Shown here: in pieces, positions 1 to 459 of the stretch
Layout: each line of letters begins with the position of its first letter
Numbering within the stretch: position 1 is the stretch's first letter
Origin: Escherichia coli
Lineage (GTDB): Bacteria > Pseudomonadota > Gammaproteobacteria > Enterobacterales > Enterobacteriaceae
Length of the DNA: 459 nt
Assembly: GCF_003334315.1 (NCBI RefSeq)
Contig: NZ_QOWR01000133.1
Strand: one strand, 5' to 3'
The notes under the pieces: generated by a model
Databases searched by the model: none
Seen by the model: only the letters and a program-made list of their open reading frames with translations
What the model was told of the DNA's origin: nothing
Position numbers and translations under genes: made by a program

Positions 1-459
1 TCTACTGTTGACTATTTGTGCCGTTATTTCTGGTGCAGAAGGCTGGGAAGATATAGAGGATTTTGGGGAAACACATCTCGATTTTTTAAAACAATATGGT
101 GATTTTGAAAATGGTATTCCTGTTCACGATACCATCGCCAGAGTTGTATCCTGTATCAGTCCTTCAAAATTTCACGAGTGCTTTATTAACTGGATGCGAG
201 ATTGCCATACTTCAGATGATAAAGACGTCATCGCAATTGATGGAAAAACACTCCGGCATTCTTATGACAAGAGTCGCCGCAAGGGAGCGATTCATGTCAT
301 TAGTGCGTTCTCAACAATGCACAGTCTGGTCATCGGACAGATCAGGACGGATGAGAAATCCAATGAGATTACAGCTATCCCTGAACTTCTTAACATGCTG
401 GATATTAAAGGAAAAATCATCACAACTGATGCGATGGGTTGCCAGAAAGATATTGCAGA
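1..459 (+). CDS. ISAs1-family (H-repeat-associated) DDE transposase, internal fragment; 5' and 3' ends lie outside the window. Reading frame 2: first complete codon at nt 2-4, last complete codon at nt 455-457.
   Basis: Seen in sequence: frame 2 is open for all 152 codons, whereas + frame 1 hits TGA at nt 100-102 and + frame 3 hits TGA at nt 9-11. The translation contains motifs I recognise from H-repeat/ISAs1 transposases: [27 protein letters not shown] and [11 protein letters not shown] in the N-terminal transposase-associated region, IAIDGKTLR (first catalytic Asp, codon nt 239-241) and ITTDAMGCQ (second catalytic Asp, codon nt 428-430). Spacing between the two Asp residues is 63 aa, consistent with DDE_Tnp_1-type (IS4-like fold) transposases. 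Recognition is from memory of the E. coli H-repeat proteins (YhhI-like); no database search was run. Gene symbol left blank because several near-identical paralogs exist and the copy cannot be assigned from 152 aa. Confidence 0.93.
1..459 (+). mobile_element. Interior of an ISAs1-family insertion sequence (H-repeat / ISEc1-like element); the element termini and terminal inverted repeats are not in the window.
   Basis: Inference from the CDS call: ISAs1-family elements are about 1.2-1.3 kb and consist essentially of a single transposase ORF, so a window wholly inside the ORF is wholly inside the element. Window GC is 189/459 = 41.2% (counted by hand), below the roughly 50% typical of E. coli-like chromosomes, consistent with a horizontally acquired element. 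Confidence 0.85.

Follow-up and report, generated by a model that had tools for sequence, protein, structure and literature searches.

A 459-nucleotide segment of an ISAs1-family H-repeat transposase gene of Escherichia coli, identical to an old and probably immobile copy linked to yafV

The window, by which we mean the whole stretch of 459 nucleotides analysed here, is an internal piece of a long-known ISAs1-family H-repeat transposase gene of Escherichia coli, and nothing contradicts this family. We hold with high confidence that it is a segment of an H-repeat/ISEc1-type transposase gene and that its source is an old, vertically inherited copy linked to yafV, probably immobile in cis. The feature is already known, and RefSeq names the gene correctly in thousands of genomes. 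The outcome is chiefly negative, with little discovery value in the window. A textbook repeated element of E. coli is found there and no novel system, just as the initial annotation had claimed; that reading, made by eye alone, was right down to the range of residues. The yafV-linked H-repeat does show the stages of decay of an insertion sequence across strains: an intact open reading frame with a decayed end, a premature stop and a shortened remnant.

Family assignment and candidate catalytic residues

Six-frame translation of the 459-nt window reveals an open frame, frame +2, in which bases 2-457 form 152 complete codons; the remaining five frames contain many stops. Base 1 of the window completes codon 29 of the source gene, and codon 182 begins with bases 458-459. 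The features assigned to the window are the following.

2 to 457, plus strand: open frame of an ISAs1-family (H-repeat/ISEc1-type) transposase, codons 30-181 of 378, at offset 86 in the 1137-nt CDS (NF033564)
2 to 196, plus strand: DDE_Tnp_1_assoc domain (PF13808; Pfam, peptide residues 1-65 on model positions 24-88 of 88, E 1.3e-23)
218 to 451, plus strand: first part of the DDE_Tnp_1 catalytic core (PF01609, IS4-like; Pfam, peptide residues 73-150 on model positions 3-90 of 200, E 2.9e-10)
239 to 241, plus strand: GAT codon of D109 (motif AIDGK), candidate first catalytic aspartate, an invariant alignment column
428 to 430, plus strand: GAT codon of D172 (motif TTDAMG), candidate second catalytic aspartate, an invariant alignment column

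The 152-aa peptide of the window scores 226 bits on the NCBIfam equivalog profile NF033564, 'ISAs1 family transposase' (cut-off 70), and is aligned end to end, its residues 1-152 covering positions 2-153 of the 314 in the profile. The full source protein of 378 aa reaches 407.6 bits on the same profile, again with a cut-off of 70. Other DDE_Tnp_1 transposases, those of the IS4 and IS1380 families, share the fold family of the catalytic core and give weak matches below threshold: the full protein obtains 21 bits on NF033592 (IS4, cut-off 115) and 26 bits on NF033539 (IS1380, cut-off 180). Since these scores lie far under the cut-offs, the protein is a member of neither family. Both Pfam domains are found in the window peptide, and their order, DDE_Tnp_1_assoc followed by DDE_Tnp_1, is the architecture of the ISAs1 family. 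The N-terminal DDE_Tnp_1_assoc domain accompanies the catalytic core in this family and has a putative DNA-binding role. In a PDB sequence search with the full protein, no solved structure was detectable by sequence.

Nine ISAs1-family transposases, drawn from Gamma- and Alphaproteobacteria, Bacillota and Actinomycetota, were aligned (alignment A1). All nine carry D109, D172 and E306, and a block formed by R300, H302, W303, H310 and D314 is likewise invariant. E306 (motif HWHVEN), the candidate third residue, is located 400 nt beyond the window in the source gene. By homology with DDE_Tnp_1, residues D109, D172 and E306 would form a candidate catalytic triad. From these sequence comparisons, we infer that the protein is most likely a DDE transposase. 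In this view, the N-terminal domain would serve to recognise the terminal repeats (CAGGG type) of a 1291-bp element, and DNA cleavage and joining would fall to the triad, as in IS4-like enzymes.

The ISAs1/H-repeat transposase identity claimed in the initial annotation is thus supported by NF033564, by Pfam and by 100% DNA identity to RefSeq-annotated genes. The prediction had been a near-full-length, high-identity match to ISAs1-family transposases over roughly residues 30-180 of about 380 aa; such a match was obtained, and the actual range is codons 30-181 of 378. Findings that would speak against the identity were also looked for. No non-transposase family gave the best match, and the identity is far above the 40% that had been set as a lower limit.

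The yafV-linked locus and its decay

Megablast of the window against 5426 complete E. coli genomes gave matches in 5311 of them; the median number of places per genome is 5. The best place has at least 99% identity in 848 records, many of them at 100%, and 23 of the H-repeat match places sit on plasmids. We inspected five of the 100% matches, from E. coli C and strains 720632, 300709, M217 and Combat13F7, and all are at one locus. In each of the five, a 1137-nt gene named 'ISAs1 family transposase' in RefSeq is convergent with yafV, which is followed by ivy and fadE. The window corresponds to nucleotides 87-545 of this CDS, located at L001:7915-9051, where L001 denotes the E. coli C locus. The assignment to this locus comes from the five inspected 100% matches, and an identical stretch of 459 nt may conceivably exist at a second locus. 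Many E. coli chromosomes carry this yafV-linked copy immediately upstream of yafV, in their aspV-fadE region. With a probe of 301 nt spanning the junction between the transposase gene and yafV, the junction proved to be kept, with at least 80% of the probe covered, in 2948 of the 5426 genomes. Because the junction is common to so many genomes, the copy is regarded as a fixed, vertically inherited insertion.

Directly upstream of the transposase gene, an Rhs gene with small downstream ORFs is found in four of the five inspected loci. According to the annotation, this Rhs gene encodes an intact core protein in two of the four and is a frameshifted pseudogene in the other two. At the E. coli C locus the upstream genes are an IS1A transposase and hypothetical proteins, and the Rhs part is replaced or interrupted by IS1. 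The position 3' of the Rhs core/tip region is also found at the locus of strain cq9 (L019), and the H-repeat copies of K-12 follow rhsB, rhsC and rhsE. That Rhs elements and H-repeats are associated has been described before (PMC3032704).

Alignment with K-12 yhhI and ydcC places the element at L001:7772-9062. It measures 1291 bp and contains a single 1137-nt ORF, in keeping with the one transposase ORF and the size of about 1.2-1.5 kb expected in the ISAs1 family. The left end of the yafV-linked copy, CAGGGAAAGATCA, is canonical for its first 13-14 nt. The right end of K-12 yhhI and ydcC, TAATCTTGCCCTG, forms a good inverted repeat with the left end, and its reverse complement, CAGGGCAAGATTA, matches the left end at 11 of 13 positions. 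The right end of the yafV-linked copy reads TAGTAATACCCCG (L001:9050-9062) and is off canonical at 5 of 13 positions; its reverse complement, CGGGGTATTACTA, matches the left end at about 7 of 13. ISfinder lists CAGGG ends for the ISAs1 family, and in the yafV-linked copy a CAGGG-type terminal repeat is present at the left end only. Given the degenerate right end, the copy is descended from the ISAs1 family but is not an intact element. No target duplication of 8-10 bp is visible by eye at L001:7772/9062 or at the flanks of K-12 yhhI and ydcC. As the left flank of the yafV-linked copy is another H-repeat/intron fragment, a target duplication may have been lost there.

With a degenerate right terminal repeat and a fixed chromosomal position, the copy is probably no longer a mobile insertion sequence. 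Some residual activity is possible, since neither the ORF nor the candidate triad is damaged and the left end follows the canonical sequence over 13-14 nt. We consider it unlikely, however, that the copy still moves by itself as an active, autonomous insertion sequence. Its right terminal repeat is off canonical at 5 of 13 positions, no flanking direct repeat is visible, the inspected 100% matches are all at yafV-ivy-fadE with the same yafV junction in 2948 genomes, and the E. coli W genome paper states that transposition of the H-repeat has not been observed (PMC3032704). These observations are set against an intact ORF of 378 codons with D109, D172 and E306, the canonical first nucleotides of the left end, and a multicopy family with several places per genome and some of them on plasmids. 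In the reading that we prefer, the yafV-linked copy is an old, vertically inherited insertion with its ORF intact in the lineage of the window, and it would at most supply transposase in trans to other copies.

The orthologous copies of other strains show further decay. Those of strains cq9 (L019:1514-2650) and G3 (L020:1516-2652) share a premature stop, Q18*, and their right ends are intermediate, TAGTCTTACCCCG (L019:2649-2661; L020:2651-2663). In LSC52 the orthologous copy is a 195-nt fragment. In K-12 MG1655 the last 292 nt remain as the pseudogene yafF, 100% identical, and the window region is absent from the locus. Such losses speak against a domesticated, transposase-derived gene that selection keeps at the Rhs/yafV junction because of a role in the host, such as the rearrangement of Rhs toxin tips. 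Domestication would be in line with a chromosomal position fixed in more than half of the complete genomes, with an ORF that is intact although the right end has decayed, and with the consistent position of H-repeats 3' of Rhs elements. It would also be in line with the dN/dS of 0.07-0.22 among the paralogues, a value that fits a gene functional during the divergence of the copies; past selection for transposition, however, would account equally well for such a low value. The intact orthologues differ by 1-2 nonsynonymous versus 0 synonymous changes (small numbers), which also argues against domestication. Since orthologues are pseudogenised or shortened in other strains, domestication is rejected as the main reading, and we regard it as very improbable. 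We likewise give very little credence to the idea that the intact copy is kept by selection, either as a trans-acting source of transposase or as a domesticated recombinase that shuffles Rhs toxin/immunity tips.

Two further observations were made at these loci. At positions 953264-953564 of NZ_CM151407.1, a record labelled E. coli K-12 substr. MG1655, the full transposase/yafV junction is present at 100%. This record annotates an ISAs1 family transposase there, whereas all that the reference NC_000913.3 shows at this place is the yafF pseudogene of 189 nt; NZ_CM151407.1 may be mislabelled, or the strain may be a different one. G3 has, upstream, a further ISAs1 pseudogene that is frameshifted, together with a ydcD-like gene; this order resembles that of K-12 RhsE (ydcD-yncI-ydcC), which suggests an exchange between Rhs loci.

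Other content of the window and its upstream flank

Further ORFs of at least 20 aa in the window are 24-43 aa in length, and the longest, of 43 aa, lies on the minus strand at 292-423. No Rfam family was matched on either strand of the window at E<=1, no tRNA or tmRNA was found in it, and none of the PADLOC defence models matched it. Its direct and inverted repeats are two-copy matches of 10-16 nt only, with no meaningful repeat. RNA folding of the window compared with dinucleotide shuffles gives z = -0.83 for the plus strand and -0.69 for the minus strand, i.e. no excess structure. Promoter-like sites number 1, against 0.9 expected from shuffles, and terminator-like sites 1, against 0.2 expected. 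The terminator-like site is a hairpin of 7 pairs, 3 of them G-C, with a T-rich tail, on the minus strand at 418-436; it lies within the coding region and is treated as chance. The G+C content of the window is 41%, that of the E. coli chromosome about 51%, and the value of the window would fit a horizontally acquired element.

The minus-strand 43-aa ORF and the minus-strand hairpin (436-418) are what could be cited for a chance or non-coding open frame, with an RNA or antisense gene as the true function of the window, but this reading is effectively refuted already by the probability of about 3.7e-5 for 152 codons without a stop, computed from the base composition of the window, by the strong matches to curated transposase profiles (NF033564; Pfam), by the Rfam and folding results, and by numbers of consensus sites close to the shuffle level.

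The initial annotation had described a single ORF with no intergenic space, no second gene and no unexplained structure. The six-frame translation agrees with the first part of this description, and the null results for Rfam, tRNA, repeats, folding and PADLOC agree with the last. It had also remarked that the interest of the locus sits in the flanking DNA. This proved correct, as the flanks hold an Rhs toxin gene, nested H-repeat fragments and a group II intron remnant. The upstream elements at the E. coli C locus are the following.

L001:7519-7595: older, more divergent left-end fragment of an H-repeat, 77 nt, beginning with CAGGAAAAGCATCACGTGATGCTGATTTTTTGCACTAAATAATTCGC, upstream of the intron remnant
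L001:7596-7609: H-repeat left end of 14 nt, joined to the intron remnant
L001:7610-7770: 5' part of a group II intron, about 160 nt (Rfam RF01999 match at 7681-7801)

Three H-repeat left ends are thereby represented in a row at this locus. The intron remnant of E. coli C lies about 230 nt upstream of the window position, and the same match is present in two other loci, L002 and L003, at 3681-3801. It scores 81.8 bits on RF01999, compared with a gathering score of 36. In this piece, no match to domains D5/D6 (RF00029) and no RT gene were found, and because the RF00029 match is absent we regard the intron piece as a remnant. A 190-nt segment with the remnant occurs in 2567 of the 5426 E. coli genomes. 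In the improbable reading of a copy kept by selection, the remnant, fused to the left end of the element, might also alter expression of the transposase gene.

A full-length group II intron was found at the ydcC locus of strain MFDS1022581 (L011:5015-6902). It carries ltrA (441 aa) and scores 93.1 bits on RF01999 and 62.8 bits on RF00029. Its site is after about nt 14-15 of an ISEc1/H-repeat left end, upstream of the transposase gene, and the O103:H2 strain 12009 (L010) has an internally deleted version of the intron at the same place. The possibility that the transposase ORF is located inside domain IV of the intron was considered and rejected: the MFDS1022581 intron carries its own ltrA and D5/D6, and at the source locus what is left of the intron is about 160 nt from its 5' part, after which a new H-repeat left end begins. 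In addition, the last hairpin of the model aligns to H-repeat sequence by structure only. Two papers of 1994, by Knoop & Brennicke and by Ferat et al., reportedly concern the H-repeat ORF. Their titles, on group II introns in E. coli mobile DNA, are listed among the references of PMC10012718.

Relation to other ISAs1-family elements and to the K-12 H-repeats

The ISAs1 family generally is characterised by a single ORF of about 360-400 aa, by the domains DDE_Tnp_1_assoc and DDE_Tnp_1 and by an element of about 1.3 kb, and the gene of the window shares these properties. The family also includes ISAs1 of Aeromonas salmonicida, IS1358 of Vibrio cholerae and IS1548 of Streptococcus agalactiae. A tblastn search against plasmids returned 922 records, among them named elements with full-length identities of 32-49%: ISAs12, ISKpn31, ISPa60, ISSba2 and ISRm21. 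Over the window residues, the same named plasmid-borne elements show 31-59% identity in alignment A1. Some relatives of the ISAs1 family have been found as new insertions in their hosts. For the H-repeat of E. coli, in contrast, transposition has never been observed (PMC3032704).

The closest relatives are the H-repeats of E. coli themselves; the H-repeat (H-rpt), or ISEc1, is the same element as the copy of the window. In K-12 it is represented by YhhI, YdcC and YbfD, by the pseudogenes ybfL and yncI, and by the yafF remnant. The window peptide is 96-97% identical to K-12 YhhI and YdcC, each named 'H repeat-associated putative transposase', and also to a copy annotated as 'ISAs1-like element ISEc1 family transposase'. 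For the full CDS, the identity to K-12 yhhI, ydcC and the RefSeq 'ISEc1 family' copy is 96.5-97% at the nucleotide level and 96-97% at the amino acid level. Over the window, the differences amount to 15 nt and 4 aa for yhhI, 16 nt and 5 aa for ydcC, and 22 nt and 6 aa for the 'ISEc1 family' copy. The yafV-linked copy agrees with the K-12 copies in the lengths of the CDS (1137 nt) and of the element (1291 bp), in the left end up to nt 13 and in its location 3' of Rhs. It is unlike them at positions 14-25 of the left end and in the right terminal repeat.
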